The notes under the pieces were generated by a model. The model worked only from the letters and a program-made list of their open reading frames with translations. It did no database searches and was not told where the DNA came from. A program made the translations under genes and the position numbers. 64,000 nucleotides of DNA from an archaeon (lineage in GTDB: Archaea > EX4484-52 > WAPT01). The stretch covers positions 192,001 through 256,000 of the forward strand of contig JAPDKB010000007.1 of assembly GCA_029258795.1 (NCBI GenBank), written 5' to 3'. Of this stretch, positions 6,159 to 47,816 are shown piece after piece. Position 1 is the stretch's first letter. Every line of letters starts with the position of its first letter.

Positions 6159-7367
6159 ATGTTTGAAAAGGTTTCCTTCCTTTTCGGGAACAATGATTTA
6201 CTTTCCTTCTTGCTACTCATACTGTTTTTTTATTTCTACCCGCGTATCTACATCTGGCAGATGGTAAGCAAGCTGGAGACGGAGCTGGTCAAACTGGAGG
6301 AATACTCGAAAGAAGTGCAGAACGAGGTAACGAAAAAAATAAAGAGCACTCACAAGAGAAAGAAAGTGAACATCAGAATGTTAAAGAAAAGGGTTGGTGA
6401 ATTCATGGATTTTTTTGTTGTTTCTCCCGTGGATACTGATCCTTACGGGATACTGAAAAAGATTGAGCACATAACCAAGATTTCTGAAAGCAGGATAGAA
6501 AGGTTCCTGGACAGGATCGGAGGAACAGCAAACAGGGATGAGAAAAAGAACATAAAGTACGGGCTGGTAGGCGCGATGGGTGTGACCATGATCTACAAAA
6601 TCATGAGGCACTACATAGAGTTAATAAAGAAAACGAACAATCTCCAGCTCGCTATGGTACTGCAGATGATGCTTCCAGACATATTGAAAACAGCAAAAGC
6701 CAACGTCAAGGCCACAAAGGCATTTCTGGACGGTATACCGATAGGGGATGGTGTGGGACCGCTTGTGGCTGCCAAGCTCAAGAGTAAGGTGGGTGATGAG
6801 ATAGAGCGGGATGTTGTGGTTAGTGCTGAAAAGTTGGGGAAAAAGAAGGTTTTTGTGATGAAAGCAAAGGGAAAAGGAGCTGAAATCTCACAAGCCAAGA
6901 TGTGGCATGCTATAGAGAAGCTTGTGAAAAAGGAGAAAATAAAGCACATAATTTCCATAGATGCTAGTGTTAAACTTGAGGGTGAAAAAACGGGCAGTGT
7001 GGCTGAGGGTGTTGGTTTTGTCATGTCTCCTCACGGTGTGGACCGACCATTTGTGGAAGAGCTGGCAACGAAGCATGGTATAGAGCTGGATGGTGTGATA
7101 ATCAAAATGTCCGATTATGAGGCATCAATACCCATGAAGAAGGAAATATATGATGCAGTACCTGCCGCAATTGAGAAGGTGAGGGAGCTTGTGGAGCTGA
7201 GCCCTCACAATAGAATATTGGTTGTTGGTGTGGGCAATACATGCGGAATAGGTAATTCGGCAAAAGAGGTTGAAAATCTGGAAAAGGTGCTTAGACCCGT
7301 ATGGAGGAAGCTGAAGAAGGAAGAGGAGGAAGAAAAGAAGAGAAAGTGGTCTCTGCTTCCTGCATGA
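6159..7367 (+). CDS. DUF1512-family archaeal protein
   Basis: N-terminal TM, PVDTDPYGI, GIPIGDGVGPLVA, IDASVKLEGEKTGSVAEGVG, GVGNTCGIG. Confidence 0.85.
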   Translation: MFEKVSFLFGNNDLLSFLLLILFFYFYPRIYIWQMVSKLETELVKLEEYSKEVQNEVTKKIKSTHKRKKVNIRMLKKRVGEFMDFFVVSPVDTDPYGILKKIEHITKISESRIERFLDRIGGTANRDEKKNIKYGLVGAMGVTMIYKIMRHYIELIKKTNNLQLAMVLQMMLPDILKTAKANVKATKAFLDGIPIGDGVGPLVAAKLKSKVGDEIERDVVVSAEKLGKKKVFVMKAKGKGAEISQAKMWHAIEKLVKKEKIKHIISIDASVKLEGEKTGSVAEGVGFVMSPHGVDRPFVEELATKHGIELDGVIIKMSDYEASIPMKKEIYDAVPAAIEKVRELVELSPHNRILVVGVGNTCGIGNSAKEVENLEKVLRPVWRKLKKEEEEEKKRKWSLLPA

Positions 7368-7405: not shown

Positions 7406-7915
7406 ATGAGTGAGGACAAAAAAAGTGAGAATATGGCTCAAGAAGAGGGCTTTCGGAAGAAGAGGATCAGCTTGGATGAATACTTTGCAAAGATGACCTG
7501 GGTTGTTGCTGAAAGGTCAACCTGCATAATCCCCGGAAGACAGTACGGAGCCATTGTTGTGAAAAACAAGCAGGTGTTATCCACCGGCTACAACGGCGCG
7601 CCGAGAGGCATGACCGACTGCCTTGAACTGGGTTACTGTCCAAAAAGAGCAAAGGGCGGAACAAGCGGAACGATGCATGAGGAATGTATAGCAGTGCATG
7701 CCGAGATGAACGCCCTGATTCAAGCCGGCAGGAATGCAGAGGGTGCAACTCTTTACGTTAATGGATTTCCGTGCAAGCTCTGCGCGAGGTTGATAGTTAA
7801 CGCTGGCATAAAACGGGTTGTAGTTTGCGGGGAGTACAGCGATAGAGAGGGGTTGAAGATTCTGGAGGATGCAGGAATTCAGGTAGATTACATCGATGTA
7901 TCTCACCTGCTCTGA
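7406..7915 (+). CDS. dCMP deaminase (ComEB/DCTD family)
   Basis: DEYF...AERSTC, STGYNGAPRG, HAEMNAL and PCKLC zinc motifs. Confidence 0.9.
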   Translation: MSEDKKSENMAQEEGFRKKRISLDEYFAKMTWVVAERSTCIIPGRQYGAIVVKNKQVLSTGYNGAPRGMTDCLELGYCPKRAKGGTSGTMHEECIAVHAEMNALIQAGRNAEGATLYVNGFPCKLCARLIVNAGIKRVVVCGEYSDREGLKILEDAGIQVDYIDVSHLL

Positions 7916-7951
7916 ACACATCTCTCCTTGCTTACGGAGGAGGAGTATATC

Positions 7952-8560
7952 ATGAAAAAATGGCCGGTGTTCGTTGGAGACTTCAAGGTTGGAAACTTTG
8001 AGGGCTGGATTGCCATAGCCACGTTAAACACACCGTGGGAAGATATGCAGGAACTTCTCGGAATCGAGGGTGTGGCGATAATCGGAAGCGTGAAGACGGA
8101 AAATCTCGGTGTGGAGAAGATAGTTGCAAACGTGATAAGCAATCCAAATATAAGGGTCCTTGTTCTTTGTGGAAGAGAGTCGAAAGGTCATTATCCCGGA
8201 GATGCGCTTATATGCCTTCTCAAGAATGGTGTTGATGAAGAGGGGAGGATAATTGATGCGAGGGGTGCAATTCCCTATCTGGAGAATTTGAGCAGGACGC
8301 ATGTGGAACATTTCAGGAAGCAGATAGTTGAAATTATGGATTTGCGTGAGATTGAGGATGTGGAAATAATAAAGAAGGAGCTGGAGAAATTGAAGGAAAA
8401 AGAGGTTCGACCTTATGAAGGTGGGGCGGTTTATGTTGAGATTGAGGAAAAGAAGGGTGGCGGGCTGCAACATTTTGAAGGAGATGTTGTTTTCATTAAT
8501 GAGGCGGCGCAGATCGACACCTCAACATTTAAAGTTGAGCTGGTAAATCAGCAGGGGTGA
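7952..8560 (+). CDS. mtrA: Soluble MtrA-like corrinoid protein
   Basis: WPVFVGDF, KTENLGVEKIVANVISNPNIR..LCGRESKGH (cobalt-ligand His), GAIPYLENL, FRKQI; no C-terminal TM; GGAGGAGG SD before ATG 7952. Confidence 0.9.
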   Translation: MKKWPVFVGDFKVGNFEGWIAIATLNTPWEDMQELLGIEGVAIIGSVKTENLGVEKIVANVISNPNIRVLVLCGRESKGHYPGDALICLLKNGVDEEGRIIDARGAIPYLENLSRTHVEHFRKQIVEIMDLREIEDVEIIKKELEKLKEKEVRPYEGGAVYVEIEEKKGGGLQHFEGDVVFINEAAQIDTSTFKVELVNQQG

Positions 8561-8564
8561 TTTT

Positions 8565-9452
8565 GTGTTCATCTTTCCGGAGCAGAAGAAGATAAAGATA
8601 GGGACTGTGGAGCTGGGCGGACAGCCGGGAGAGTTGCCTGCGGTGATGGTCAGCACGATGTTTTATGAGGGGCATAAAATTGTGAAAAGTGATGGTGGTT
8701 TTGACAGGGAGAAAGCTGAAGAACTCCTGAACCTCCAGCAGGAGAAGAGCGATGAAACAAAACTGCCATACATAACCAACGTTTATGGGAATGATGCTTC
8801 CTCCCTCATCAAGAGGGTGGAATTCGTGGCTGAAAATGACGAAAATCCCATCATGATTGATTCTCCCAGCTATTCTGCCAGAGTTGAAGCCATGAAATAT
8901 GCTAAGGATTGTGGACTGATTGACAGATGCGTGTACAACTCTCTCAACATCACACTGAATAAAGATGAGAAGGATAAACTTGCTGAGCTCAGCGCGAGGA
9001 ACGTGCTTGTGCTTGCTCATGCTATCAATGAGCAGAGTGTTGAGGATAAGATATCGTGCCTTGAAAAGGATGGTGCGATGGGGAAGGGCTTGCTTGATCA
9101 CGCTAAGGAGATAGGAGCAAGTAACGTGCTGATAGATACTGCGACAACACCCCTGCAGCAAGGAGCATCTCTATCCTTAACTTCTCTGGTCACCTTGAAA
9201 GCCAAATATGGCCTGCCTGTTGGATGTGGAATACACAATGCTGTGAGTTCGTGGGAATGGATAAAGAAAAGAGAAAGCTATAAAGTTGTGGATGCTGCCT
9301 CCGCACTACTGCCTGTGATCCTTGGAGCGGACTTCGTGCTCTACGGACCCATAGAGAATGCAAGATACGTTTTTGATGTTGCTGCGTTTGCTGAAATTCT
9401 GGTAGAGGAAAACGTTTCTCGTTTCACTTCCACATTCGGACTGAGCCTGTGA
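8565..9452 (+). CDS. mtrH: MtrH-like methyl-pterin:corrinoid methyltransferase
   Basis: GGQPGELPAV..TMFYEGHKIV, FDREKAEEL, IDS, YNSL, LIDTA, GLPVGCGIHN, GADFVLYGPIENA. Confidence 0.92.
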   Translation: MFIFPEQKKIKIGTVELGGQPGELPAVMVSTMFYEGHKIVKSDGGFDREKAEELLNLQQEKSDETKLPYITNVYGNDASSLIKRVEFVAENDENPIMIDSPSYSARVEAMKYAKDCGLIDRCVYNSLNITLNKDEKDKLAELSARNVLVLAHAINEQSVEDKISCLEKDGAMGKGLLDHAKEIGASNVLIDTATTPLQQGASLSLTSLVTLKAKYGLPVGCGIHNAVSSWEWIKKRESYKVVDAASALLPVILGADFVLYGPIENARYVFDVAAFAEILVEENVSRFTSTFGLSL

Positions 9453-9465
9453 GGGCATGCACTTT

Positions 9466-12400
9466 TCAGTCACACCTCAAGCATCTCCCGTTAACGAGCC
9501 TCATGCCACATGATGGGCATCTTTCCTTGCTTTCTATGGCCTTCTTGAGATATGTGAGGTACTCATCTCTCGCTACGGGCTCAGTGAAATAGACCAAATC
9601 GGGTCTTCCTGCTGGCTCTGGTTGTTGCGTGGTTCTGGCCACTGTTACCGGCACATTCCCTGCCATAAGTGGAGGAGTTGCGGGGAGTGTTGGCGATTTA
9701 TACGTGGTGACACCTTTCGATTTTTCTGCATGAGTTCTTGCACGTGCGAAGGGGAGCAAGGAAGGTATGCTGAGCTTGCGCTTTCCGTAGGAGTAGGTGG
9801 TGGAAGAGCTCATCCTCGTGTAGTACATCAGTCCAAACAATCCGAGCAGTCCTAAGCTCACGATAACGATCAGCATCGTTTTCCATGGTTTGGCGGGCTT
9901 TTCTTTTGATTCAATAAGATAGCTCTCCATCTGGTTGAGGTAATTTGATGCTCTCGCTATTTTTTGCTGTGCCGCTTCATAATTTCCGCTCATGACGTCA
10001 TCTCTCGCTGATGCCAAAAGGGAGGAAGCTTCATCGTACAGCTGCTGGAGTTCCTGTGGAAGCGACTCTCGATTTATGGCTGTGAGCCTTCCAGCCATGT
10101 TGTCGATGGTGTTCATGAGTGTTTCATATACATCTTCTTGTGTTTCTTCTGATGCCTCTTCACTCACGATGTTTATTTGTGCTGTTGCTGTGGTGCTTAT
10201 CTGGTCAGATGTTATGAGTACGTAGATATCGCTAGAGTAGGAGTAGAGGCACAGGCTATACTCCAGCTCTACACTTTCATTGGGAAGCAGTGTGATCGGA
10301 CTGGATTCAAATGTTATGGAATGTGTGCTTGAAGTAACATCTTTCACCCGTAGATTTGTGATTATTTTCTTGCCCTTATTAGTAACACGAATCGTTCCGA
10401 TTGTGCATCCACCTACCGACACGGACACAGGCGTGGCATAAACGCTCAACTTATACTCATCTTCCTTTTCTGTTGGCTGAGTAACTACTGATGACGTTCC
10501 AGCAATGGAGGTTGTTGGCTCGTAACTCTTGCCATGCGAAGGCGTCGGACAGTAGAAGGACACATATATATCCTTCACTTCCTGATCCGTGAGGTTGAAA
10601 GCTTCCGTCTTAAAGTCGTTACATCTGGGCTTTGTTGCTTTTATCATTACATTTGTGGCTTGTGTTGTTGAGTTCAAAAGGACAAAATTCTCAGCTCCTT
10701 CTTCAGTAATATTTATGGTTTTCACCAGCGTTCCATTGGAATATACGTAAACCATGGTTCCTGCCTGCTGTGAGCTGCTCACAAGGATGTGTAAAATAGC
10801 ATAACCACTTGTCGAGTTTAGCACCAGCGTTAGATTATTACCTGCCTTTTCATTTCCGCCAGCTTTAACCTCAATCCATCTTGGCTCAGCGGGGAAATAT
10901 CCAGCTTTGTAAGCTGATAGCGCATTCATCTCAAGCGTATAGTTGCCGGGAGTCATTTCTCTGAAGAAAACCAGCCCGCTTCCATTTGTTTCTGCACAAG
11001 TCGTCGTGTTGAGGCAGAGCTGAATGTTGCTCAACGGTGTGCCAGTCGTATTAATAACATGGATTGAGTAGCGAGTTTCATTGAAGATTGCAGTTATATT
11101 TGCTATCTTGCCATGTTCATCGAGCTCCACGGCAGTTGGAGCTGAAACCGGGATATACGCATCACTCACAACGTAAGTGATGGTGTAATTACCAAGCGGA
11201 AGCCGTAAGAACTGAACTTTACCGTCTTGAGTCGCGTTTTCAAGCTCAAGTCCAAGCTCCGCATTCCTTATCTTCACCTTTCCATCAAAGCTCTCGTTGA
11301 GATCGTTACTCAAATTAATTATGATAGATGTTGGTTGAAGTTCAATCGTTATTTCCTCAACCTTCCCGCTCTCCATAAAATGATGGACATGGGCTGTGCC
11401 GTAGTTTTCCTCAGTTCCATCAAACACGAAGGTGTAGTTACCCTGACCTAGAAACACAACAGCTTCGCCGTCCTCATTGCTCACCACATGACACAAGTCT
11501 GGCTGTGAGGTTCCAACAAGATAACAAGATATAGAAACGTTTGGGATTGGCATTCGTGTTATGGAATCCACTACTTTTATCCTCATCTCTGACTCGCCGG
11601 CAGTGTAAAGATAAACGCTCTGATTTATGATCTCGTACGTTGTTGACGGAATCTTTATTGGCTGAGGAGCGTTGTATCCTGCAGTCATCACTTCCAAATA
11701 AGACACACCATAATATGGATTAAATCTACCTTCAAGGAGGTTACCTTCCTTCCAGTAAGCTGTGTAAAGAGGAGATCCTACTTCATCAGTTAGCGTGAAG
11801 TTCGCAATTCTGATCTCAACATTTATCGGATCGCCTGTTTTTGCATCGTAAAGATAGATGTAAGATTTTCCAATCGGGACCATTGGAATTATGAAGTTCT
11901 TACTCTCGCCATCTGAAAAGGTTATGAGGTGTGTTTCAGCACTTTCATTATAGTAAGTGTAAGTTTCATAACCCTCCTTGACCACAACGAGCTTGTAGTG
12001 CTGCAGCTCAGCATTTCCCTCCACAGGTGAGCCGAGGGTGTAGGGTGATACTCTTGCATAAAAGTTTCCTGCCGTGTCAGTATGCAATACATATCTTGCC
12101 TGCTGGTCTAATGTTGGGGAAGCATCATAAAGGTAGATGGTGGCGTTGTATATGTTCTTTCTCGAATCAAGGGGATTTATAAAGTAAAGGTCATATACGT
12201 GCCCGCTTATCTCCGCAGTACCGTTCAGATATATTCGGAATGCTGGCTTTATGCCGTAACCGTCCACAACATCATCCAGATAGCTACCTGAAAACCTGAT
12301 TCCCAAATCCTTGGAATTGTAGCTCTCGTAACCTCTAGCGCGTATCAGAACATAATACCGTTTCTGCCCGTCGATACTCAATTTCAAGTGACCGCTTGAA

Positions 12401-15400
12401 GTTGTATTTCCTGCATTCATCTTGAGCCATCCAACCATGAACGCATTTTCTATTATCAACACACCGTAACCCATGGATGTGCCATTAATCACAACATCAA
12501 ACGCATCGGAGGTAACATTGAACGTTGCTTTTCCGCTTGAGTTGGTGTAATTAACATATTCATTTCCTGTAAGGTGAGATATTAGCTTTACAGTGACGTT
12601 TTCAAAAACATTATTTCCTTCTTCATCAACCACAGTTATGGTAATTATAAATCTGTCGTCACTTATGTTCATCGGTTCGAAGGGTGATGATCCCTCCACA
12701 ACATCTGGATCTAGAGCCACAATTTTATGCTCTCCGGTATCGATGTCAATTAGGGTCCAATTTATGGTTCCGCTCTTGTTTACAGTTAAATTACAGTTAT
12801 TGCAGGGGAGCAACCTTCTGAAAATCACCCTACCATTGCTGTCAGTTGTACCATTTACATAGTTGCCGAGAGCGTCTTTTGCAACTCTCCACTCCCCACT
12901 AACATTTTCAAACAGAGTGACCAATGCCCCACTTACGGGATCTCCTTCTGGAGTGTGTACAGTAACGTTCAGCGTCGTGATATTCAGTTTAACATTTAGC
13001 ACGCCTCCCCAGACAACGTTGTAATCATCAAAATTGGCATTCCCGTATCCTTTGTCTTCTCCGATGACTGTTATATCGTATTTTGTATTGTTTTTGAGGT
13101 CCGTGAATCTCGCAATACCGGTAGTGGTGTTTTTCTCTGTCTGATAGTCCGTGCCAGTTACTATAACTGTGATGTTATCGAGAGGATTACCATTCTCGTC
13201 AGTGACATTAACTGTAAAGGTGCTGTCCACTATAGTGAAGGTGTAATTAACCTCCGTGGTGCAGTTTTTGTTTAGATCGCATATGGTTATGTTCCATCTC
13301 CAATTACCGCAACTGAATAGCATAGATGCGGTGTGATTTGTAGAAAATACATTAGAGGTCCATTTGTATGAATTGCTGCCGTTGTAGAACACTACAGAGA
13401 TATTGGTAGATTCGCTTGTAGAGATATTTATTTTGAGACTTATCGGTCCCCTTGAACATGGAGCGCCCAGTACTGTATTGTTCTCCGGCTCAACGGATGT
13501 AACGGACGGAAGCCTGTAATCAACTTTGATGTAATTGTTTCCCGAAAACACGAGAACAGTATTATTGACATCAGGATATCCCAATTTGGTTATAGTGAGT
13601 GTATAGAGTGTTGGTATGACGCCTGAGAATTCCACCTTACCTTCGGTGTCAGTGAGATCCGTTAGCGGTGCACCCGTTTGGTTAAAAGCAATACCGCTTT
13701 CATTCCAGAAAGTAACATTTGCATTGCTTATCTTAGTTGTGCCGTTCACAACTTCAACCAGTACATCTGTAGTGCTATTTGCAAGGATAAAGAAGACCAC
13801 ACTGTTGTTACAGTTGTTGGATTCATCGCACACTTTTATTTTCCATTTCCATGTACCGCAGATAAGTGCTATTTTACGTGTGTGGTTGGTGCGGAGTTCC
13901 GTATCATTGAAGTAATTTAACGGTGTGCTCTCCTGATCCTTGTAGAATTCTGAATAGAGAGTCGTGTTCTCATTTGTTGCGACCCAGTAGGTCATTTTCT
14001 CTGGAGAGTCTTGATTACAGTCAATGATTACGAAGGAATTGTTTTTGGGGTTGGTGCCCACTATCAATGGAGGGTATATATCTAAAGTCACGTTATTCTC
14101 GCCTTCACGAACGGTAATAGATTTTTCGTAGTGATGCTGTGTGGGGGAATAAACATCAACAGTGAGCTTGTAAGTGTATGGTTGAAGCATATCGAAAAGC
14201 ACGCTTCCGTCTGATGATGTAAGTGATGTTAGTGGAGTCCCAGCAGTGTTCCTTGCTATAGATGAGCCGTTCCAGAGTGTGACATTTGCGTTTGCTATGG
14301 GTTTGACACCATTCGTGATTACGACTTTCAGATAGGTTCGAACGAAGTTAATCGTGTAGTTGTTCTTCTTACCCGCCATATCGGTAGTGAGCGTGTAGGT
14401 ATCATATTTTATTCCACATCCCTGCGATACAGCGTCCACTTTTATTCTGTATGCGCCGACTGGTACGAACTTGAACATGACTGATCCATTATCATTTGTT
14501 GTTGCTGTGAATCTGCACAGATTTCTTGTTGCTTGTGCTGGGGTGCATCCGTCTGTCTTGTTCATCTCCACCAAAATTCCGCTGTGAGAACACCCGGTGG
14601 TGTTAATAGTTAGATTCAGTGTTGTTATGTTGAGGCCCTGAGTTTCGTATTCTCCCTTTTCATCAGTTCTGAAGAACAAAATTACTTCAGCGTTTGGAAT
14701 AGGTTTGTTGTTATAATAATCGTAAACGAACGTCTCAAAGTAAGCTTTCAATTTTATTGAATTTTCTCCTGTAAAATTGTAGTTGGGTGGGTAAACCTTA
14801 CTATAACCGTCCCATGCAAGGTATCCGTGTTGATAAGCTCTGATCTTGTACTGTGTGGTGTTGTCAACGTGAATGGTGAAGCTTCCGTCGATGTTCTTTT
14901 TCTGATATATGAGTTCACCGGTATCCGGCAGATAGAGCTCAACCGTGGCGTTGTGCAGCGGCTCTCCTGAGTATGCATCCACCAAGCTACCTTTTATGGT
15001 GCCTGCACCTCTCAGCTTATGAACTGTCCACATGTTTATGAATGCTGTACCGGTCTCGTTTTTCGTTAGATAACCTTCTTTACTGAAATTGATGATATAA
15101 TTCGAGGTAACACCCAGATAGGCATCGAAATAACCATCTCCATCCGTCATAAAGACATAGCGCAATATCGTGGTGTTACTGGAGTTTTCCTTTATTTCAA
15201 TTCTAACGTTGGAGAGGGGCCGATCATTTTCTTCATCTATTACATATCCGTGAAAATGAGTGTATCCTCTCAAAACAAAGTTCTTAGTTACGGTATCTCT
15301 ATCGATTATTAAATCGTAATAGGGACTGCTATTGTAACCGAGTCGAGAAGCTTGAATACGAATCATTTTATCCTTAGGCACCCTTATGGAATATGCTCCG

Positions 15401-18400
15401 TTTTTATCTCCCACCACTACAGGATAAATTTCTTTACCGTTTATATTGAATTCAACTTTAATTTTCGGATTTGGTATATTACAGGGATTAACATAAAGTA
15501 TTCTGGAATCGCTACAAGCTTCGTCCCTAACAACTCCTTTAATAACTGATCTTCCCTCCAGAACAAGATCCACACTCAAGAAATCGGTTCCCCTACCATC
15601 CACAGAAATGGTGGTGTGGTTGTAACCTTCCTCGGTTCCATTAGCTGTTATCTTGTATATCTCGTTGCCTTTAACATAAAGCGAGAAATTACCTCCGTAA
15701 CTTGAGGTTACATCATAGCAGTATGCTAATCCTGAGGATGGGCAAAGTTTAATCGGTATCAATGGGAGAGTTATTGTGGCATTGTTTTCATCTCTATTAA
15801 CGTCCAGCACTCTACCGGATATGTAGAGTGTGCCCTCTAGGTAGTATGTGCCATTGATATCCCCAACTGCATACAGTTGTAACGGTTTGTAACCACTGTC
15901 CGAACCCCCTACTATTAGTGTATAATAGTTGTTTTCACGGATGTAAGCATCCACAAAACCTTCCGAATCAGTATAGAAATTGTATGTTGCGTATTGAGGA
16001 TAATTGAATCCGAAATTATCCAGTTCCTCGATTTTAACATTAATTCCTGGAACTGGTTTATTGCTGTAAAAATCCAACAATTTAATTTTAACATGAATGG
16101 CACCTCTCATGAAAAATGGTGGTAAATATCTCGTGCCGTTTTCCGATATCGTGTAACCAGAACCTTCATTCGTAAAGTTCGCTGCAAAATAACCATCTCT
16201 CTGCGCTTCAATTACGAATCCGTGTTCATCAAGCATGTACGGAGGAACATATATTTCCCAGTCGCCGCTATCGTTTGAAATGGTGGAGTAATTGTACCCA
16301 TATTCTTCTCCCACAAAACCTCCTATGCCGTTAGGAGTCCACTTTCTGAGCGTAACATGTGCTCCGCTAACTCCTAAATCTGTATTAAACTCATCAACAA
16401 GCCGACCCCTCATGAGATAATTTCCTTTCAAGGTTATACTACCCAAATCCTTCTCTTCGCCTTCCATAACACAGTAACTTGTAAATGTTTCATTCCTTGT
16501 TCTGTAACCGTATCTCTCAACAACCAATCTGTAGCAGTATGGAAATCCTTCATCCACATACCCGCCTCTAACAAAAATCCAGGCAAAGCCGCTACTGTTC
16601 GTTACTGTAGTGAAGTTCGTGCTTTCAGACAGTACAAAAGTGACCGTGGCATTGTCCAGAGGCATTCCATTCTGGTAATCCACAACTCTCATTTTGAAAC
16701 TTGCGAGTCCGCGTTTGTAAACATAAAAGGTGTAATTGTTCAGTTCTGTGGAGGCGGTGAAATTCCATCTTCTCATGATGAAGTTCGTTCCCGCGTCCAC
16801 CTCAAGGGTGTAATCGAACGTGCCCCTTATGCGCAAGGAGAAATATCCTTCATCATCCGTCTGAAGAACGTACTCCACCATGCCTGTCTGGTTGTTTATT
16901 ATTCTGACTGTGGCGTTGGAGATTGTCAAAAATCCGTACTCGCTAATACCTATAACTTTCCCGTTGATTGTTGTGTTTCCAAAAATCGGCACTGTGAGAT
17001 TATTCGTTGTGGAAAGATTGATATTCGTCAAAACGGTCGTTATATACCCTTCCTTATCTGCGTATATGTTGTAGAGGAGAGTTTTGTCTACAAAAACGGT
17101 GGTTTTTCCGTCCGCATTGGTGGGTTGGGTTATTGATAATCCAAATGGGTATCCTGTGACAGTCACACTCACCCCACTTACAGGTTGGAGGTTCTCGCCA
17201 TCAATAACAGTGATGTTTAACGGTGTTGTTGACACATCAAAGACGAGGAAACTCGAGTTGGTCCAGCCAGCTGAATCAACAGCATAGACTGTTATGTTGT
17301 GGATACCGTCATTAAAAGTTAGAGTAGTTGTTCCTCCAAAACAATTTGTGCAAAGGGTGAAGACGGTGCCATTGCTGTCTATTTCGTAAGTTATGTTGGC
17401 CGGAGTTGTGTCTGAAATTGAGATGTTTAAGTCGAGGACATTTGTGGTGTATATAGTGGTGTTTTGTGGTGAGAGGATATCAATAACGGGGGGTGTTGTG
17501 TCAACAGTTACTGTTATGGTGCTTGAGTTCACCCATCCTGCTGAATCTGTGGCATAAACCGTTATGGTGTGAGTACCATCTTGCAATGTCAAGGTTGTTG
17601 CTGCATTAGAACAGTCATTACAAAGGGTGAAAATTGTACCGTTGTTATCGATTTCGTAGGTTATGTTAGTGGATGTCAGGTCTGAGACCGAAACATTGAG
17701 CATAATGTTACTGGTGTTCACAACAGAATTATTTTGAGGAGAATTAATGTGGATTACGGGCGGGGTAGTATCAACCGTCACCACCATAGTTCCTGTTGTG
17801 TTAAGGGTGGTGGAATTGTCCTCCACCCATATAGCAAATGTGTGAGTTCCATCACTCAGGTTGAAAGGAATAATAAGATACTCCCATCGAGTTGTGTTTA
17901 ATTTTGCAAGATAGCTTAAGGAAAATATCTTTATTATTTCATCCTCACTCAAAGTTCGATTATATATACGGAGTTCATCCACAATACCGTTAGCAGCATC
18001 CGTGCCTGCAAGCCGTCTGCCTATCCTTAAAGGATCGTTTGAAACGTCCATAAGCCCTCTGTTAGGCGCTGTAATTACAAAGAGTTGCGGAGCATCTTCC
18101 TCCAGAATAATCAATTTGGTTGTTGTTGAGTTTCGCGAAATTGCTACGAAATACGCGTCATGAAAGAGATTTAATGGGTACTGTATCTCCTTATCAAACT
18201 CCCCACTTACATATGTGTAGAATGTCAGATAGCCGTTCGAATCTACAAAGAGGTAATATGACCCATTTTTTTCAACGATAGTATGGTTTAAACCCGTTTC
18301 ACCAACGGAAATCCATGCCATAATGGTAAGCTCATCAGTAATATGTAAACTTGGCGAATCATCAATCTCTATATAATCATCTACTCCATCAAACTCAACT

Positions 18401-18774
18401 CCTCTGAGTACTACATCAACATAGTTCGGACATGTTCCCGCCGTTGCATTACACGTACCGTTGTTTCCATAAAGAGAAATGTCTACAAACTTACTATTAT
18501 TCTCACCTATGGCGGAGATGTTGTTGAAGCCCAGATAGAGCACAAGGGAAGCATCATAGATGGAGTAATTCGCGCCATCCAGCGTGAGATTCAGCTGCGT
18601 CATGTTCACTGCCTCAACACTTGAGTTGACCTCGAACCACGAGTGGTTCAGTATCGAGTTGTTGGAAGGAGTTGGTGGGACGAAAGTTGCAACCGGCAGC
18701 GCTAATGCTGCTTCTGCAGAGATCAACAGGAGTAATAGCAGTATCGCCGCGCCTCCTGCTCGCTTTCTACTCAT
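9466..18774 (-). CDS. Giant (~3100 aa) cell-surface protein: signal peptide, LamG/ConA-like domain, tandem Ig-like and carboxypeptidase-regulatory-like beta-sandwich repeats, C-terminal TM and Cys4 tail
   Basis: FDGVDDYI...VDELRIYNRTLS (LamG); VDTTPPVI repeats; many 'P+.NA.V...TD..G.F' repeats; abundant NxS/T; TM TMLIVIVSLGLLGLFGLMYY; terminal CPSC...CLRC; start at ATG 18774 assumed. Confidence 0.85.
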   Translation of the reverse strand: MSRKRAGGAAILLLLLLISAEAALALPVATFVPPTPSNNSILNHSWFEVNSSVEAVNMTQLNLTLDGANYSIYDASLVLYLGFNNISAIGENNSKFVDISLYGNNGTCNATAGTCPNYVDVVLRGVEFDGVDDYIEIDDSPSLHITDELTIMAWISVGETGLNHTIVEKNGSYYLFVDSNGYLTFYTYVSGEFDKEIQYPLNLFHDAYFVAISRNSTTTKLIILEEDAPQLFVITAPNRGLMDVSNDPLRIGRRLAGTDAANGIVDELRIYNRTLSEDEIIKIFSLSYLAKLNTTRWEYLIIPFNLSDGTHTFAIWVEDNSTTLNTTGTMVVTVDTTPPVIHINSPQNNSVVNTSNIMLNVSVSDLTSTNITYEIDNNGTIFTLCNDCSNAATTLTLQDGTHTITVYATDSAGWVNSSTITVTVDTTPPVIDILSPQNTTIYTTNVLDLNISISDTTPANITYEIDSNGTVFTLCTNCFGGTTTLTFNDGIHNITVYAVDSAGWTNSSFLVFDVSTTPLNITVIDGENLQPVSGVSVTVTGYPFGLSITQPTNADGKTTVFVDKTLLYNIYADKEGYITTVLTNINLSTTNNLTVPIFGNTTINGKVIGISEYGFLTISNATVRIINNQTGMVEYVLQTDDEGYFSLRIRGTFDYTLEVDAGTNFIMRRWNFTASTELNNYTFYVYKRGLASFKMRVVDYQNGMPLDNATVTFVLSESTNFTTVTNSSGFAWIFVRGGYVDEGFPYCYRLVVERYGYRTRNETFTSYCVMEGEEKDLGSITLKGNYLMRGRLVDEFNTDLGVSGAHVTLRKWTPNGIGGFVGEEYGYNYSTISNDSGDWEIYVPPYMLDEHGFVIEAQRDGYFAANFTNEGSGYTISENGTRYLPPFFMRGAIHVKIKLLDFYSNKPVPGINVKIEELDNFGFNYPQYATYNFYTDSEGFVDAYIRENNYYTLIVGGSDSGYKPLQLYAVGDINGTYYLEGTLYISGRVLDVNRDENNATITLPLIPIKLCPSSGLAYCYDVTSSYGGNFSLYVKGNEIYKITANGTEEGYNHTTISVDGRGTDFLSVDLVLEGRSVIKGVVRDEACSDSRILYVNPCNIPNPKIKVEFNINGKEIYPVVVGDKNGAYSIRVPKDKMIRIQASRLGYNSSPYYDLIIDRDTVTKNFVLRGYTHFHGYVIDEENDRPLSNVRIEIKENSSNTTILRYVFMTDGDGYFDAYLGVTSNYIINFSKEGYLTKNETGTAFINMWTVHKLRGAGTIKGSLVDAYSGEPLHNATVELYLPDTGELIYQKKNIDGSFTIHVDNTTQYKIRAYQHGYLAWDGYSKVYPPNYNFTGENSIKLKAYFETFVYDYYNNKPIPNAEVILFFRTDEKGEYETQGLNITTLNLTINTTGCSHSGILVEMNKTDGCTPAQATRNLCRFTATTNDNGSVMFKFVPVGAYRIKVDAVSQGCGIKYDTYTLTTDMAGKKNNYTINFVRTYLKVVITNGVKPIANANVTLWNGSSIARNTAGTPLTSLTSSDGSVLFDMLQPYTYKLTVDVYSPTQHHYEKSITVREGENNVTLDIYPPLIVGTNPKNNSFVIIDCNQDSPEKMTYWVATNENTTLYSEFYKDQESTPLNYFNDTELRTNHTRKIALICGTWKWKIKVCDESNNCNNSVVFFILANSTTDVLVEVVNGTTKISNANVTFWNESGIAFNQTGAPLTDLTDTEGKVEFSGVIPTLYTLTITKLGYPDVNNTVLVFSGNNYIKVDYRLPSVTSVEPENNTVLGAPCSRGPISLKINISTSESTNISVVFYNGSNSYKWTSNVFSTNHTASMLFSCGNWRWNITICDLNKNCTTEVNYTFTIVDSTFTVNVTDENGNPLDNITVIVTGTDYQTEKNTTTGIARFTDLKNNTKYDITVIGEDKGYGNANFDDYNVVWGGVLNVKLNITTLNVTVHTPEGDPVSGALVTLFENVSGEWRVAKDALGNYVNGTTDSNGRVIFRRLLPCNNCNLTVNKSGTINWTLIDIDTGEHKIVALDPDVVEGSSPFEPMNISDDRFIITITVVDEEGNNVFENVTVKLISHLTGNEYVNYTNSSGKATFNVTSDAFDVVINGTSMGYGVLIIENAFMVGWLKMNAGNTTSSGHLKLSIDGQKRYYVLIRARGYESYNSKDLGIRFSGSYLDDVVDGYGIKPAFRIYLNGTAEISGHVYDLYFINPLDSRKNIYNATIYLYDASPTLDQQARYVLHTDTAGNFYARVSPYTLGSPVEGNAELQHYKLVVVKEGYETYTYYNESAETHLITFSDGESKNFIIPMVPIGKSYIYLYDAKTGDPINVEIRIANFTLTDEVGSPLYTAYWKEGNLLEGRFNPYYGVSYLEVMTAGYNAPQPIKIPSTTYEIINQSVYLYTAGESEMRIKVVDSITRMPIPNVSISCYLVGTSQPDLCHVVSNEDGEAVVFLGQGNYTFVFDGTEENYGTAHVHHFMESGKVEEITIELQPTSIIINLSNDLNESFDGKVKIRNAELGLELENATQDGKVQFLRLPLGNYTITYVVSDAYIPVSAPTAVELDEHGKIANITAIFNETRYSIHVINTTGTPLSNIQLCLNTTTCAETNGSGLVFFREMTPGNYTLEMNALSAYKAGYFPAEPRWIEVKAGGNEKAGNNLTLVLNSTSGYAILHILVSSSQQAGTMVYVYSNGTLVKTINITEEGAENFVLLNSTTQATNVMIKATKPRCNDFKTEAFNLTDQEVKDIYVSFYCPTPSHGKSYEPTTSIAGTSSVVTQPTEKEDEYKLSVYATPVSVSVGGCTIGTIRVTNKGKKIITNLRVKDVTSSTHSITFESSPITLLPNESVELEYSLCLYSYSSDIYVLITSDQISTTATAQINIVSEEASEETQEDVYETLMNTIDNMAGRLTAINRESLPQELQQLYDEASSLLASARDDVMSGNYEAAQQKIARASNYLNQMESYLIESKEKPAKPWKTMLIVIVSLGLLGLFGLMYYTRMSSSTTYSYGKRKLSIPSLLPFARARTHAEKSKGVTTYKSPTLPATPPLMAGNVPVTVARTTQQPEPAGRPDLVYFTEPVARDEYLTYLKKAIESKERCPSCGMRLVNGRCLRCD

Positions 18775-18781
18775 GAACTCT

Positions 18782-19006
18782 CTACTCTTCTTCCTCCTCA
18801 TTCACCACACCAACACCACTCACAACATGTTTCGGCAAGTAAACATGCGCTCTGCCAACCACCACCCTCTCAAGCAGTCCCTGCTGCCTCATTGCTTCCA
18901 GATACCCCGTCAAGAATTCTCTTCTAAGCTTGAGACGTTTGGCTAGTTCAGAAACAGACATGGGCTTCCTTGAGAGCTCTTCCATTATCCTCTCATGAAT
19001 CTCCAT
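18782..19006 (-). CDS. Small winged-helix DNA-binding protein
   Basis: IMEELSRKPMSVSELAKRLKLRREFLTGYLEAMRQQGLLER..VGRAHVY pattern; ends 7 nt before the giant gene start. Confidence 0.75.
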   Translation of the reverse strand: MEIHERIMEELSRKPMSVSELAKRLKLRREFLTGYLEAMRQQGLLERVVVGRAHVYLPKHVVSGVGVVNEEEEE

Positions 19007-19179
19007 CCAACATCACAAAACCGCACTTGTTCTCTTTATCTCTATACCTCAAGCACTCGAGTTAATGAGTTAAAGGACAAAAAGCCCTATATAAAGATTT
19101 CCATATTGCCGTCAATATGATGTGCAAGCTTTGCGACAAATTCGCTTATAATAAAAATTTTACCCACGAAGGTCTTATC

Positions 19180-19872
19180 ATGCTAATAATAGGCACGAAC
19201 ACGGAAGACGCTTGGAGAAAGGCCGTTAAAGCTGTGATGGAACACGGCAGAACCATAGTTAGTGAAGATGGTGATGAAACTAAGGAGATAATAGGGCTTG
19301 CGGTGAGGATACTCAAACCCACCATAAGCATAGATAAAGCTCCACCCGAATACCCATTCCATGGAAAAGCTCTGCAGGATTATGTTGATCAGCTCATGAC
19401 ACCTGAAAACAGATGGGGCTTTGAGTACACTTATGGTGAGCGTATATGGAACTGGAACAATCAGGTCAATCAGGTTGAAGCGATAATTGAGCGGCTTGCT
19501 AAGAGTCCTTTCAGCAGGCGTGCGGTCATTGACCTCACCATTCCCACCATGGACCACTTTCCCGAAAAGATAAGAGATCCTCCCTGCCTCAGAGTTATCT
19601 GCTTTAACATAAGGGAGGAGAAGGAAGCGCCAATGCTGCCTGCGGTAAAGAAACTTCACACGGACGTGCTCTTCAGAAGCCACGATATATTTGGAGCAAG
19701 CTATGCGAACTGGGTGGCGCTCGCTCACCTTCAAAAACATGTTGCTGATGAAGTTGGAAGACGGAGAGGAGAGCGGATATTCATGGGAGAGCTGCACAGC
19801 TATTCCGTCTCAGCCCATATTTATGGCAGGGATTTTGAGATGGCCGATAGGGTTGCAAGGTCAACTAATTGA
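19180..19872 (+). CDS. thyA: Archaeal-type thymidylate synthase (ThyA-like)
   Basis: FEYTYGERI, SRRAV, PPCL (catalytic Cys), FRSHD, AN (dUMP-selecting Asn), SAHIY; start at ATG 19180 assumed. Confidence 0.9.
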   Translation: MLIIGTNTEDAWRKAVKAVMEHGRTIVSEDGDETKEIIGLAVRILKPTISIDKAPPEYPFHGKALQDYVDQLMTPENRWGFEYTYGERIWNWNNQVNQVEAIIERLAKSPFSRRAVIDLTIPTMDHFPEKIRDPPCLRVICFNIREEKEAPMLPAVKKLHTDVLFRSHDIFGASYANWVALAHLQKHVADEVGRRRGERIFMGELHSYSVSAHIYGRDFEMADRVARSTN

Positions 19873-21056: not shown

Positions 21057-21545
21057 ATGCGCATCTCCCAGCAAATATGGCCGAGAAGCGTTGTGCTCGT
21101 GTGCAGCGTGGATGAAGATGGTAAAGCAAATGTTATGACCGCGAGCTTTGTCATGCCTGTAAGCTTTAACCCAAAATACATAGCTGTTTCCATCTCTCCC
21201 AAACGTCACACCTTCTCCAACCTTCAGAAAGTTAGAGAGATGACCATCAACGTTTGCGATGTGAACATGAAGAAAGCTGCTGATATCTGCGGTACTTACT
21301 CGGGCAAGAATGTGGATAAGTTCGAGCTAGCAAACCTCACTGAGGAGAAATCAAGAAAGATCAGGGTACCGTGTATAAAGGAAGCACCAATCAGTTTTGA
21401 ATGTGTGGTTGAAGGTATGCATGAATACGGAGACCATTTTATCGTTGTGGGGAGGGTTGTGGAGGAGCACGTGAGGAAAGCTGAGTTCGAGCCGCTGCTT
21501 CATGGAAGTGGGGATGATTACTTCACCGCAAGAAAGATCGACTGA
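21057..21545 (+). CDS. Flavin reductase-like FMN-binding protein (flavoredoxin family)
   Basis: PRSVVLV, GKANVMTAS, SFNP, HTFSN, CGTYSGKNVDKF, P.IKEA..FEC, GDH..VGRV. Confidence 0.9.
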   Translation: MRISQQIWPRSVVLVCSVDEDGKANVMTASFVMPVSFNPKYIAVSISPKRHTFSNLQKVREMTINVCDVNMKKAADICGTYSGKNVDKFELANLTEEKSRKIRVPCIKEAPISFECVVEGMHEYGDHFIVVGRVVEEHVRKAEFEPLLHGSGDDYFTARKID

Positions 21546-22557
21546 GGATTTCATCCAGCAGCTCATATTTATTGAAGCACATGAGGTGTACACCCCTGAA
21601 GTCAAGTTCTCTGCTCAATTTGATCATTTCCCTCGTTCTTTCAATTCCGGCAGCTTCGCCTTCTTTTTTTACCGCTTTGATGAGCTCTTCATCTATTCTC
21701 ATACCCGGCACTCTTTTCAGCTCTTCAACCATTTCAGCCGAGATCAAGGGTAACACGCCCACGATCACCTTTCTTCTGAACTCTTCATCCAGTTTCCTGG
21801 CCAGCTCTTCGAGAACTGTAAAGCTGAACACTGCCTGTGTCTGGGCAAAATCAGCGTACCTCATCTTCTTTCTGAACTTGAGCAACTCATTCTCAAGCGG
21901 GACTGCGTTTGGGTTAAGAGCGACACCCACGCTTAGCGTGCGGAACCTCTCATTCTCGTCCTTCTTGAGCTTCCATGCAAGATAGGTTGAATCCACAAAG
22001 AAGTGTGCTTTCCTCCCTTTAGAGTAATCTCCAGTCAGCAGGAGCACGTGGTTTATGCCAGCAATTCTTGCAGCGAGCAGCTTTGAAGTTATCACTTCCA
22101 TACTCTTGTTCCTGCAGACCACCTGCAGAATCGGGATGATATGTTTTTCCATGAGCCAGCATGCAACCATAAGATTGTCAGCATGTTCTTTTCCCATCGG
22201 GTTGTCCGTCACATTTACTGCATCGATAAGGTGAGATCTTTTTTGTAACTTTTCCATCAGTTCAGCTATTTTTTCCTTTTCACCGAACGGAGCAAGCTCG
22301 GTTGTGACTACAAAATCCTTGGAAAAAAATGATGGCTCAACTCTCGGTGGCGTGAAATCCTCAAGCTTCTGCCCTTCATGAAAAATGGAAATGATTTCGT
22401 TTTCCATGCCCGCGTTTCTCAGCTCGTTCATGATTTCAGCCCATGCACACCTGCCGCCAAGCTCACAAATCCCATCATGGCTTCCGCCACATGGCCCATT
22501 CCACATTTGTTTCGGGCAGCGATCGTGTGCTTCTACAACCAGTTTGAAAATATTCAT
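21523..22557 (-). CDS. metF: Methylenetetrahydrofolate reductase (MetF) with N-terminal Cys-rich MetV/MTHFR_C-like segment
   Basis: CPKQMWNGPCGG..GICE...CAW followed by VTTELAP, DAVNVTDNP, QVVCRNKS, LLLTGD, ADFAQTQ, GVHLM; start ATG 22557 with AAGGTG SD. Confidence 0.88.
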   Translation of the reverse strand: MNIFKLVVEAHDRCPKQMWNGPCGGSHDGICELGGRCAWAEIMNELRNAGMENEIISIFHEGQKLEDFTPPRVEPSFFSKDFVVTTELAPFGEKEKIAELMEKLQKRSHLIDAVNVTDNPMGKEHADNLMVACWLMEKHIIPILQVVCRNKSMEVITSKLLAARIAGINHVLLLTGDYSKGRKAHFFVDSTYLAWKLKKDENERFRTLSVGVALNPNAVPLENELLKFRKKMRYADFAQTQAVFSFTVLEELARKLDEEFRRKVIVGVLPLISAEMVEELKRVPGMRIDEELIKAVKKEGEAAGIERTREMIKLSRELDFRGVHLMCFNKYELLDEILSRSFLR

Positions 22558-22682
22558 TAAAGCCACCTTCAATCCCGTTTTTCTTACCACTTTCAAGCAC
22601 TTCAAGATAGATATGGATGTTAGATGTTAAAATTGTTGTGTTGTTTCGCTCTCTCAAAAAATGCCACTTCCTGTTCATCATT

Positions 22683-22856: not shown

Positions 22857-22962
22857 TCAGCAAATTCAATCATTTCAAGATTCTGTGGCTCATGCGTGAC
22901 TGCTCACCCAGCTGCATCAGAGCAACACATTTTAATTAATTACCGTCCAACACCATTCTGTG

Positions 22963-24210
22963 ATGAGGATGAACCCTGATGAAATTATTGGAGAGGTTGT
23001 ACATCTTACCAGGCTCCACGATCTCTGGCGCAAATACGAGTGCATAAATTTGATAGCTTCTGAAAACATTATGTCCCCGAAAGCAGAAGAGCTTTATATC
23101 AACGACATGATGCACCGCTATGCTGAAGGACTGCCGTTCAAGCGGTACTATCAGGGTCACAAGTATCTCGATGAAGTGGAGGTAAAAGCGCAGCAGCTCA
23201 TGGCCGGGCTTTTCAATGCCGCACATGTTGATTTGCGCCCCTTAAGCGGCACGATAGCTAACCTTGCTGTCTTTGTCGCGTTTCTGGAAAACGGGAATAA
23301 GGTTGCTGCGCTTGACGTCCCTCACGGCGCTCACGTCTCTCACACGATTCATGGCGCGTTGGGATTGAGGGATGTGGAGGTGCTGCAGCTGCCGTTTGAT
23401 AAGGAAAGAATGAACATAGATGTTGATAAGGCGGTAAAGCTTGTGGAGCAGGAAAAGCCAGATATGATTATTCTGGGGGCGTCGCTATTCCTTTTCCCGC
23501 ATCCAGTAAAAGAGATAAGCGATGCCGCCAAGAGTTATGGAGGGCTTGTTGTGTATGATGCCGCCCATGTACTCGGATTGATAGCGGGTAAGCAGTTCCA
23601 GCAGCCATTTGAGGAGGGAGCAGATGTGGTCACGAGCTCAACCCACAAAACCTTCCCCGGCCCGCAGGGCGGCGTGATAATGGCTGCTGAGCATGTTGAT
23701 TTCGAGAGGGTGCAGAAGGCGATATTTCCAAAACTTGTGTGCAATCACCACATCCACCGGCTCCCTGCTTTGGCTCAGACCGCCTGGGAGATGTGGAGGT
23801 ATGGTGAAGCTTACGCCAGACAAACAATAAAGAACGCCAAAGCGTTGGCTGAGAAGCTGTCTGAGCTGGGCTTTAAAGTGCTGGCTGAAGAGCATGGATT
23901 TACCGAAAGCCATCAGGTTGTGATAGATGTGAGGGAGTACGGTGGCGGAAAGGTTAACGCTGAGAAGCTGGAAGCAAACAACATCATAGCCAATAAAAAC
24001 ATGATTCCGGGAGATGAGGCAAGCAGCGAGACCATGAAGAATCCTTCCGGCATAAGGATCGGCACGCAGGAGATGACGAGATGGGGCTGCAAGGAGAAGG
24101 ACATGGAGGCAATAGCGGAGTTCATACATCGTGTTGTGGTCAAGGAAGAGAATGTGAAGGATGATGTAATGGAGTTCAGAAAGAGTTTTAGGGAGGTGCG
24201 CTACTGCTGA
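22963..24210 (+). CDS. glyA: Serine hydroxymethyltransferase (archaeal type)
   Basis: INLIASEN, RYAEGLPFKRYYQG, SGTIAN, HGAHVSH, YDAAHVLGLIAG, SSTHKTFPGPQGG (PLP Lys), PSGIRIGTQE. Confidence 0.96.
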   Translation: MRMNPDEIIGEVVHLTRLHDLWRKYECINLIASENIMSPKAEELYINDMMHRYAEGLPFKRYYQGHKYLDEVEVKAQQLMAGLFNAAHVDLRPLSGTIANLAVFVAFLENGNKVAALDVPHGAHVSHTIHGALGLRDVEVLQLPFDKERMNIDVDKAVKLVEQEKPDMIILGASLFLFPHPVKEISDAAKSYGGLVVYDAAHVLGLIAGKQFQQPFEEGADVVTSSTHKTFPGPQGGVIMAAEHVDFERVQKAIFPKLVCNHHIHRLPALAQTAWEMWRYGEAYARQTIKNAKALAEKLSELGFKVLAEEHGFTESHQVVIDVREYGGGKVNAEKLEANNIIANKNMIPGDEASSETMKNPSGIRIGTQEMTRWGCKEKDMEAIAEFIHRVVVKEENVKDDVMEFRKSFREVRYC

Positions 24211-24542
24211 TGCTTCCCCACAAGATATTTGAGATAAAAGCTGAGAAGCACAGCGAGGCAGAAATAAAGCTGGACAAGCATTTCTTCGTTATAAACGTTG
24301 ATCATGAATCAAAGGAAATCGTGGTTGAAGCTTATGAATATCTGGGCACGGAAACAAGACCGGGGAGTGGAAAGCTGAAGTTCATCTTCAGGGGGAAGAA
24401 TGGTATAGATCTTTTTCGCACAATACTTAAGTATGACCTCGTGAGCATGCTGGATCATGCTGCATATCTGGGCTATGAGCTTGCCAGAGCCGAGGAATGC
24501 CTGAAATCCGGCAAAAAGTACGTGCAGGACGAGAACGGATAA
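24210..24542 (+). CDS. DUF4346-family protein
   Basis: LD..FFVINVD...EIVVE...FRGK....L...I....LVSMLDHAAYLGYELARAE.CL..GKKYVQD; TGATG overlap with glyA. Confidence 0.85.
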   Translation: MLPHKIFEIKAEKHSEAEIKLDKHFFVINVDHESKEIVVEAYEYLGTETRPGSGKLKFIFRGKNGIDLFRTILKYDLVSMLDHAAYLGYELARAEECLKSGKKYVQDENG

Positions 24543-31038: not shown

Positions 31039-31150
31039 ATTTTACTACTTAATAGTAACATATTTAAATTGTTGTTCTCCCTACCCTCTTTAATTCGACT
31101 ATCAACGAACTTACAACCAAATTTAAAGCTTCTGAGCGATGTTTTTCATC

Positions 31151-47813: not shown

Positions 47814-47816
47814 ACC

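Follow-up and report, generated by a model that had tools for sequence, protein, structure and literature searches.

Soluble MtrA and MtrH homologues coupled to methanogen-type thymidylate synthase in EX4484-52 archaea: a possible cobamide-dependent route to thymidylate

We describe a 64,000-nucleotide (nt) stretch of archaeal DNA (the window; positions 192,001 to 256,000 of the forward strand of contig JAPDKB010000007.1, assembly GCA_029258795.1, lineage EX4484-52; WAPT01), in which genes for an MtrA-family corrinoid protein and an MtrH-family methyltransferase stand behind a gene for deoxycytidine monophosphate (dCMP) deaminase. MtrA-family domains are coupled at the genomic level to a methanogen-type thymidylate synthase (ThyA-m), a conclusion that we hold with high confidence. 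At about even odds, we propose that the three genes form the front end of a cytoplasmic, cobamide-dependent module for thymidylate synthesis, in which a methyl group would travel from serine through GlyA, MetF, MtrH and MtrA to deoxyuridine monophosphate (dUMP) on ThyA-m. An earlier note on this DNA had read the pair as a cytoplasmic methyl shuttle for nucleotide metabolism, with a novel tail on MtrA. Solubility, a place outside methanogenesis and a link to thymidylate all stand, but the novelty of the tail does not. Papers given below by PMC number are cited from excerpts.

The coupling is seen first in gene fusions. Genus g3 of the same phylum carries an MtrA domain and a full TIGR03283 domain, the model for methanogen-type ThyA, in one protein of 474-508 amino acids (aa), detected by same-frame matches in 6 of 8 genomes and confirmed by domain scans in two. 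Family f2 encodes proteins of ~485 aa in which an MtrA-like domain is followed by ThyA and then by a weak DUF4346 domain (4/5 genomes), and both genomes of family f8 encode MtrA proteins of ~600 aa with a weak ThyA-like part. Adjacency adds to this: mtrH and thyA are neighbours in genus g6, with gaps of 4-38 nt (loci L049, L057 and L058) and, by coordinates, also in genome G027, and an MtrA-MtrH fusion in genome G011 is followed 8 nt on by a ThyA-like open reading frame (ORF). The association also extends to a second phylum, that of a 'Candidatus Micrarchaeota archaeon', where 6 of 151 sampled genomes had an MtrA-family match and in five of these six a single reading frame holds MtrA, ThyA-m and DUF4346. 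In a collection of 5.8 billion proteins, 5 of the 12 longer matches to the window MtrA also carry PF00303. A search of a 1.84-billion-protein representative library with one MtrA-ThyA fusion as query returned 166 proteins at E <= 1e-30; among the 149 new best representative clusters, 103 join MtrA-like and ThyA domains (91 MtrA-ThyA-DUF4346, nine MtrA-ThyA and three MtrA-DUF4346-ThyA), a share that is enriched by construction because a fusion served as the query. Both domain orders exist.

The distribution of these genes across the phylum, which in the genome collection used comprises 42 genomes of one order, 41 of them profiled, points the same way. ThyA-m (TIGR03283) was found in 27 of the 41 genomes and MtrA in 26, followed by SHMT (20), MtrH and DUF4346 (14 each), and MTHFR and ThyX (12 each). 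MtrA and ThyA-m occur together in 22 genomes and ThyA-m alone in five; ten have neither, and eight of these ten carry ThyX. The four genomes with MtrA and no ThyA-m consist of two with divergent fusions, one with a contig-end match and one that is 68% complete. Every MtrH-positive genome has ThyA-m (14/14), 13 have DUF4346 and 10 have MTHFR. Conversely, the eight genomes with a strong ThyX match (E <= 1e-67) have no MtrA, no MtrH and no DUF4346 (0/8 each). Because the profiled genomes are kin, their counts cannot be taken as independent; even so, the pattern shows a clean exchange between the module and ThyX at least twice, in family f5 and genus g13.

In the window, the three genes lie on the forward strand in the order dCMP deaminase (7406..7915, TGA stop), MtrA-like protein (7952..8560, ATG start, TGA stop, 202 aa) and MtrH-like protein (8565..9452, GTG start, 295 aa), separated by 36 and 4 nt. 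The 36-nt gap contains GGAGGAGGAG, which ends 6 nt upstream of the mtrA ATG at 7952, and GGGGTG precedes the 4-nt gap before the mtrH start GTG at 8565; the gaps and Shine-Dalgarno motifs described in the earlier note are thus present as described. The deaminase matches PF00383 (1.1e-20; 73.9 bits, cut-off 25) and has the zinc motifs HAE at residue 98 and PCKLC at residue 122, and it falls below the ComEB equivalog cut-off (83.8 vs 219). It would convert dCMP to dUMP, the substrate for thymidylate synthase. The source genome (1.17 Mb in 23 contigs; 96.3% complete, so that an item reported here as not found in it is not a proven absence) has a single MtrA and a single MtrH. All three genomes of the source genus have the order dCMP deaminase-mtrA-mtrH, and in the two others the series runs DUF1512, dCMP deaminase, MtrA, MtrH and a giant gene, with MtrA identity of ~50%. 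These two bear the name Nanobdellati, which we take to denote the DPANN group. In the sister genus g6, a dCTP deaminase gene (PF22769) lies 9-15 nt upstream of mtrA (L035, L036); its product is not homologous to dCMP deaminase, yet it likewise feeds the dUMP pool. The nucleotide link once drawn from the dCMP deaminase neighbour is therefore borne out well beyond that neighbour, by fusions, adjacency and co-occurrence with ThyA.

The MtrA-like protein is a clear member of its family, matching PF04208 at 1.7e-52 (178 bits, cut-off 25; profile positions 6-170 of 173), NF002126 at 164.7 bits (cut-off 161) and solved MtrA in PDB entry 5laa at 4.4e-40; 8q3v also aligns. The family is marked by the cobalt ligand His84, the Glu54 hydrogen-bonded to it and the motif GAIPF-Y/F-xEN (Wagner et al. 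2016, PMC4915002). The histidine of the KGH motif, H80, aligns with His84 of both structures, and E50, the Glu partner of this histidine, and GAIPYLEN are also there, so the retained cobalt ligand that had been read from the sequence holds up. The same is true of the missing transmembrane helix, since the best 19-residue Kyte-Doolittle mean is 1.08, compared with 2.56-2.63 in four canonical 244-aa MtrA proteins. The protein scores below both the canonical equivalog TIGR01111 (167.7 bits, cut-off 249.15) and the MtxA equivalog NF010654 (160.8 bits, cut-off 279). A 48-row tree places it outside the canonical clade, on the far side of a split with 95/85 support, and does not resolve the branching within that non-canonical side, where several fused rows sit on long branches. 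The C-terminal tail is, by alignment, the counterpart of the juxtamembrane segment of canonical MtrA: D189 is invariant across 18 aligned MtrA proteins, among them canonical membrane forms, and soluble relatives of ~200 aa, several of them recorded as Methanothrix, show the hydrophobic/D-P pattern again. In canonical MtrA this segment stabilises the cofactor, and its removal lowered cofactor content (Wagner et al., PMC4915002).

The MtrH-like protein matches PF02007 at 8.2e-81 (271.8 bits, cut-off 22.8) and lies just below the TIGR01114 equivalog cut-off (270.8 vs 271.4 bits). Its match to MtrH of PDB entry 9qtp (7.1e-61, 209 bits) is stronger than that to the folate-using MtgA of 6sj8 (2.3e-42, 148 bits), and its pterin may be either tetrahydromethanopterin or folate. 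MtrE (PF04206), the one membrane subunit given a search of its own among MtrB to MtrG, is found in none of the 41 genomes, source genome included, and McrA, CdhC, Mch and the FolD C-domain were not found in the source genome. Nor was MtxX (TIGR03270), in line with the earlier note, which saw no mtxX. The lack of MtrE across the phylum, the tree position and the lack of a McrA or MtxX match agree with that note's picture of a soluble pair outside methanogenesis. The finding that the note had named as fatal to its reading, mtrBCDE elsewhere together with this MtrA in the canonical clade, was thus not obtained, MtrE standing for the membrane subunits. With no McrA found, coenzyme M is an unlikely acceptor. 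The source genome likewise yielded no Meth_synt_2 domain, no ThyX and no DHFR, and among the 41 genomes there was no S-methyl_trans domain and no Pterin_bind match above cut-off.

The only partner that the comparative data offer is ThyA-m, which we propose as the acceptor of the MtrAH methyl group. Its gene lies further along the window at 19180..19872 (+); the ORF opens at 19117, and homologues start at M22, which is 19180. The match to TIGR03283 spans model positions 3-200 of 201 at 172.9 bits, 1.65 below the equivalog cut-off of 174.55. Residues C136, R166, S167, D169, N177, H213 and Y215 are invariant in eight relatives. A structure model (pLDDT 81) matches ThyA, dCMP hydroxymethylase and MilA with a Foldseek probability of 1.00, and its closest fold match is the flavin-dependent dCMP hydroxylase 9iqu (TM 0.74/0.78). 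ThyA-m is thus predicted, from sequence and model, to have the ThyA-superfamily fold with the catalytic Cys, the dUMP-binding Arg and Ser and the uracil-selecting Asn, residue meanings that we take from PMC13326640. Residue 133 (window ~19576), three before Cys136, is polar in every class: seven of the eight close relatives have Asp there, and the fusions have N, S, D or H. By eye only, it matches Leu143 of E. coli ThyA, which excludes water according to PMC13326640.

Genes of one-carbon (C1) metabolism follow thyA in the window. A flavin-reductase-like protein (21057..21545, +; PF01613, 7e-37) is a candidate supplier of reductant, whether for corrinoid reactivation, MetF or dihydropterin; its gene is 1.2 kb downstream of thyA here and directly after thyA in genome G001 (L048 6576-7061). 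Two ORFs without a family match (20008-20463 and 20551-21018) lie between thyA and the flavin reductase gene. Beyond it come a MetF-type methylene-pterin reductase with a MetV-like N-terminal domain (21523..22605, -; PF02219 at 2.8e-23, and PF12225), the serine hydroxymethyltransferase GlyA as a C1 source (22960..24210, +; PF00464 at 2.3e-69, NF000586 at 453 bits) and a free-standing DUF4346 protein (24210..24542, +; PF14251, 1.1e-20), whose start shares 1 nt with the stop of glyA. The glyA and DUF4346 genes touch or overlap in three genomes from two families (window 22960-24542, L048 329-1917 and L050 3982-5590), and the pair is kept in G001 and G007. The DUF4346 protein is probably an accessory of the MtrAH/ThyA system. 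Its model (pLDDT 80) had no Foldseek match at E <= 0.001 and no clear solved relative, the best VIA-align Z of 6.2 (ribosomal and EVH1/PH-like chains) is within that tool's noise, and an Atlas search returned DUF4346 clusters only. A separate family of 384-419 aa (P0123, P0125 and P0127; NF002128) joins a Cys-rich N-terminal domain to MtrA, with Glu and His intact, and DUF4346; its Cys-rich domain may serve as a redox centre that reactivates the corrinoid.

We hypothesize the following course for the methyl group. GlyA would make methylene-pterin from serine, MetF would reduce it to methyl-pterin, and MtrH would pass the methyl group to the Co(I) of a corrinoid on soluble MtrA. Methyl-Co(III)-MtrA would then dock on ThyA-m, whose catalytic Cys would activate C5 of dUMP for methyl uptake, giving thymidine monophosphate (dTMP) and Co(I). 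In this scheme the binding of a cobamide, the direction in which the methyl group moves and the last step, from methyl-Co(III) to dUMP C5, are predictions. Because the pterin would remain reduced throughout, no dihydrofolate reductase would be needed, and the net reaction would be that of ThyX, which agrees with the lack of a DHFR match and with the mutually exclusive occurrence of ThyX and the module. Two further considerations count for this relay. No other methyl acceptor or sink was found among Meth_synt_2, S-methyl_trans, McrA, MtrE and CdhC, and ThyA-fold enzymes can change cofactor. Polar attack by a carbon nucleophile on methylcobalamin is known from TsrM. The change of cofactor, from folate to flavin, has occurred in the phage 5-hydroxy-dCMP synthases (PMC13326640), and the closest fold match of ThyA-m, 9iqu, is itself a flavin enzyme. 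A complex prediction of two copies of ThyA-m with MtrA gave a score of 0.01 (mark 0.32), which counts neither for nor against. The wider proposition, that ThyA-m, MtrA, MtrH and DUF4346 constitute a third, cobamide-dependent thymidylate synthase system in which a methyl rather than a methylene group moves and the pterin is never oxidised, is one that we put forward tentatively and regard as somewhat less probable than not.

The state of the cobalt site differs among MtrA classes and bears directly on how general the relay could be. Free-standing or MtrH-fused MtrA proteins keep Glu50, His80 and GxxPYxEN without exception (12/12; 11 from the phylum and one from the second phylum), and both ligand residues are also kept in the MtrA-DUF4346-ThyA representatives (3/3) and in 26 of 28 MtrA-DUF4346 representatives. 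The g3 fusions have His80 with Ala in place of Glu50 (5/5), and those of f8 have His80 with Pro in that place (2/2). Several observations weigh against the relay, beginning with the classes in which both residues are lost: the f2 fusions (3/3), the second-phylum fusions (5/5) and 89 of 91 MtrA-ThyA-DUF4346 representatives. The ThyA residues stay in every class, with C136, R166 and N177 each kept in 90 of those 91, so ThyA-m evidently works beside an MtrA-like domain that lacks the known means of ligating cobalt. MtrH, MTHFR, SHMT and free DUF4346 are missing from the same lineages in which the ligands are altered or lost; since g3, f2 and f8 show none of these four, the relay cannot be general. 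The degenerate fusions reflect either repeated loss of the relay together with another C1 supply, or a corrinoid-independent second role of the MtrA-like domain. Both readings weaken the general claim, which is why we hold the mechanism at about even odds for the source genome and lower elsewhere.

Other contrary points concern gene content and context. The same-genus genomes G001 and G002, and also G011, are without MTHFR, and the divergent tandem ThyX-like gene that G001 and G002 have in its place is not explained. In the window, thyA is 9.7 kb from mtrH, behind an opposite-strand gene of 9.3 kb; as mtrH and thyA are neighbours in g6, the two may once have formed an operon that this giant gene broke up. 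ThyA-m adjoins no MtrA copy in the four methanogen genomes checked. Finally, cell extracts made dTMP from formaldehyde and endogenous pterin, a result that also fits the classical methylene route (PMC9931769). The product of the tandem ThyX-like gene (L048 2066-3361 in G001; G002:C25:4679-5779) is ~430 aa long, and its two divergent Thy1 repeats match at E 1e-17 and 1e-10. The gene sits exactly at the MetF place of the source genome, and could be a non-orthologous MetF replacement or a second thymidylate synthase.

The degenerate fusions support another explanation, that ThyA-m is an ordinary methylene-pterin synthase and that MtrA, with DUF4346, is a non-catalytic, cofactor-holding or reductase-like partner, the last comparable to the DHFR of DHFR-TS fusions, and that corrinoid chemistry is dispensable. 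GlyA is present and could feed ThyA directly, and the flavin reductase beside thyA in G001 could re-reduce the pterin. However, this explanation leaves MtrH and MetF jobless, although mtrH adjoins thyA in g6, and it does not account for the joint disappearance of MtrH, MtrA and DUF4346 where ThyX replaces ThyA-m, nor for the cobalt-ligand residues of all 12 free-standing or MtrH-fused MtrA proteins. The degenerate-fusion lineages are also without SHMT, so that nothing there points to a classical source of methylene units either. We consider it unlikely, though it deserves to be kept in mind. Flavin chemistry offers another way to run ThyA-m without the relay: a ThyA fold with ThyX-like chemistry, served by the flavin reductase and with MtrAH only loosely associated. 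The fold match to 9iqu, the position of the flavin reductase gene in G001 and in the window, and the lack of a DHFR match all favour it, but ThyA-m keeps Asp where flavin enzymes have Asn (the D169N marker of PMC13326640), and the MtrA fusions and mtrH-thyA operons would go unexplained; we therefore think it very improbable.

The remaining alternatives accept a methyl transfer and send it elsewhere, or deny it altogether. MtrAH could run in reverse, from a methylated compound through MtrA and MtrH to the pterin, with MetF oxidising the product and so providing a classical ThyA with methylene-pterin. MtrH-type enzymes such as MtgA run that way (NF047990 by its name; PDB 6sj8), MetF is in the same neighbourhood, and published proposals have MtrAH funnel methyl groups into C1 pathways (PMC9635834). 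On the other hand, fusions of MtrA to ThyA would not be expected if the only partners of MtrA were MtrH and a substrate methyltransferase; MTHFR was not found in G001, G002 and G011, which do have MtrAH, GlyA already gives methylene units, and Pterin_bind was not found above cut-off in any of the 41 genomes. Such a reversal is improbable in our view. We give almost no credence to MtrAH as the methyl-donor half of a split methionine synthase, in which MtrA would serve a core MetE/MesA. MesA is predicted to take its methyl group from MtrA (Price et al., PMC7857596), but we dropped this idea since neither acceptor enzyme was found (Meth_synt_2 in the source genome, S-methyl_trans in the 41 genomes). 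Equally negligible is the chance that the pair is an inert remnant of methanogenesis or of the methyl branch of the Wood-Ljungdahl pathway. MtrAH 'remnants' have been discussed (PMC9635834), but the genes here are intact, with ligand residues kept, order conserved at ~50% identity and joint loss with ThyA-m, and this idea too was dropped, no MtrE, McrA, CdhC, Mch or FolD C-domain having been found.

A gene for a DUF1512 membrane protein (6159..7367, +; PF07431 and PF23542) lies 38 nt upstream of the dCMP deaminase gene, holds the same position in the two same-genus genomes and is also found near MTHFR in G018. It may head the transcript and is a tentative member of the module. The giant gene between mtrH and thyA (9466-18801, -) encodes a 3111-aa secreted or surface protein and ends 13 nt past mtrH; ORFs of 2977-2980 aa occupy the same place in the same-genus genomes. 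Two more very large ORFs, of 1632 and 746 aa, the latter without a Pfam match, lie at 42915-50057 (-). A gene for endonuclease dU (31139-31732, +; PF01949, 4e-62) shares the window with the dUMP/dTMP genes. The segment at 53366-56938 (-) is AT-rich (GC 0.32-0.36, compared with ~0.45 elsewhere), encodes an N6/N4 DNA methylase, a GmrSD-type nuclease and a DpnII-like restriction enzyme, and is probably a defence island.

Two enzyme solutions are known for thymidylate, ThyA and ThyX, to which a cobamide-linked route, if true, would add another. MtrAH genes outside methanogens are known already, with a role described as unclear and hypothesised feeds to the Wood-Ljungdahl pathway (PMC9635834) or service to coenzyme M (PMC11291895), and such a route would supply their function. 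It would also provide a role for DUF4346 and the long-sought job of the soluble, Mtx-type MtrA/MtrH paralogues, and it would mean that ultra-small symbiotic archaea depend on vitamin B12 as well. According to the excerpts of the sources, the enzymes behind the archaeal thymidylate cell-extract studies were never purified or identified (PMC9931769), and the biochemistry of methanogen ThyA is little known (PMC9012536). The relay, if true, would explain why archaeal ThyA was never reconstituted with methylene-pterin alone, and it makes testable the old gap left by an archaeal ThyA that is uncharacterised with purified components (PMC9931769, PMC9012536). In a literature search conducted mostly outside subscription journals and without supplements, we found no paper linking MtrA, DUF4346 or cobamide with thymidylate synthase. 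The earlier note's warning against mtrA as a marker of methanogenesis is sound, as mtrA and mtrH matches in metagenomes say nothing on methane metabolism, but it is not new, the point being already in print (excerpts of PMC9635834, PMC4915002 and PMC12978539).

Compared with the MtrA-H complex of methanogens, the Na+-pumping methyl-tetrahydromethanopterin:coenzyme M methyltransferase (PDB 8q3v, 9qtp/9qts), the window pair shares the Rossmann-type corrinoid fold, His/Glu dyad and GAIPxxEN of MtrA, and its MtrH is likewise a methyl-pterin:Co(I) methyltransferase by family. It differs in that its MtrA has no transmembrane anchor and stands outside the canonical clade, no MtrE is found, and the proposed acceptor is dUMP on ThyA. 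A closer likeness is to the cytoplasmic MtrA homologues and mtxXAH genes of methanogens, whose MtrA is soluble, keeps His84, is paired with an MtrH homologue and has no known function (PMC4915002; Harms and Thauer 1997, via PMC12978539). The window pair is likewise soluble, with the ligand His kept and an MtrH-type partner, but its MtrA has a C-terminal segment of ~40 residues missing from the 170-180-aa methanogen copies, no MtxX was found in the source genome, and its context is thymidylate synthesis.

The logic of a pterin-side methyltransferase, a corrinoid carrier and an acceptor enzyme is also that of the three-component corrinoid methyltransferases, of MetH and of Desulfitobacterium MtgA (6sj8); here the acceptor would be a ThyA-fold enzyme, and the methylated atom would be a dUMP carbon in place of a thiol or pterin nitrogen. 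As a TIGR03283 protein, the window ThyA-m is a full-model match with the catalytic residues kept and a score 1.65 bits under the cut-off, and its tie to MtrA, MtrH and DUF4346 is not seen for the TIGR03283 proteins of the four methanogen genomes. In fold and cofactors the module is unrelated to ThyX, yet the two are mutually exclusive in the phylum and would share the same net reaction, with an external reductant, a pterin left reduced and no part for DHFR.

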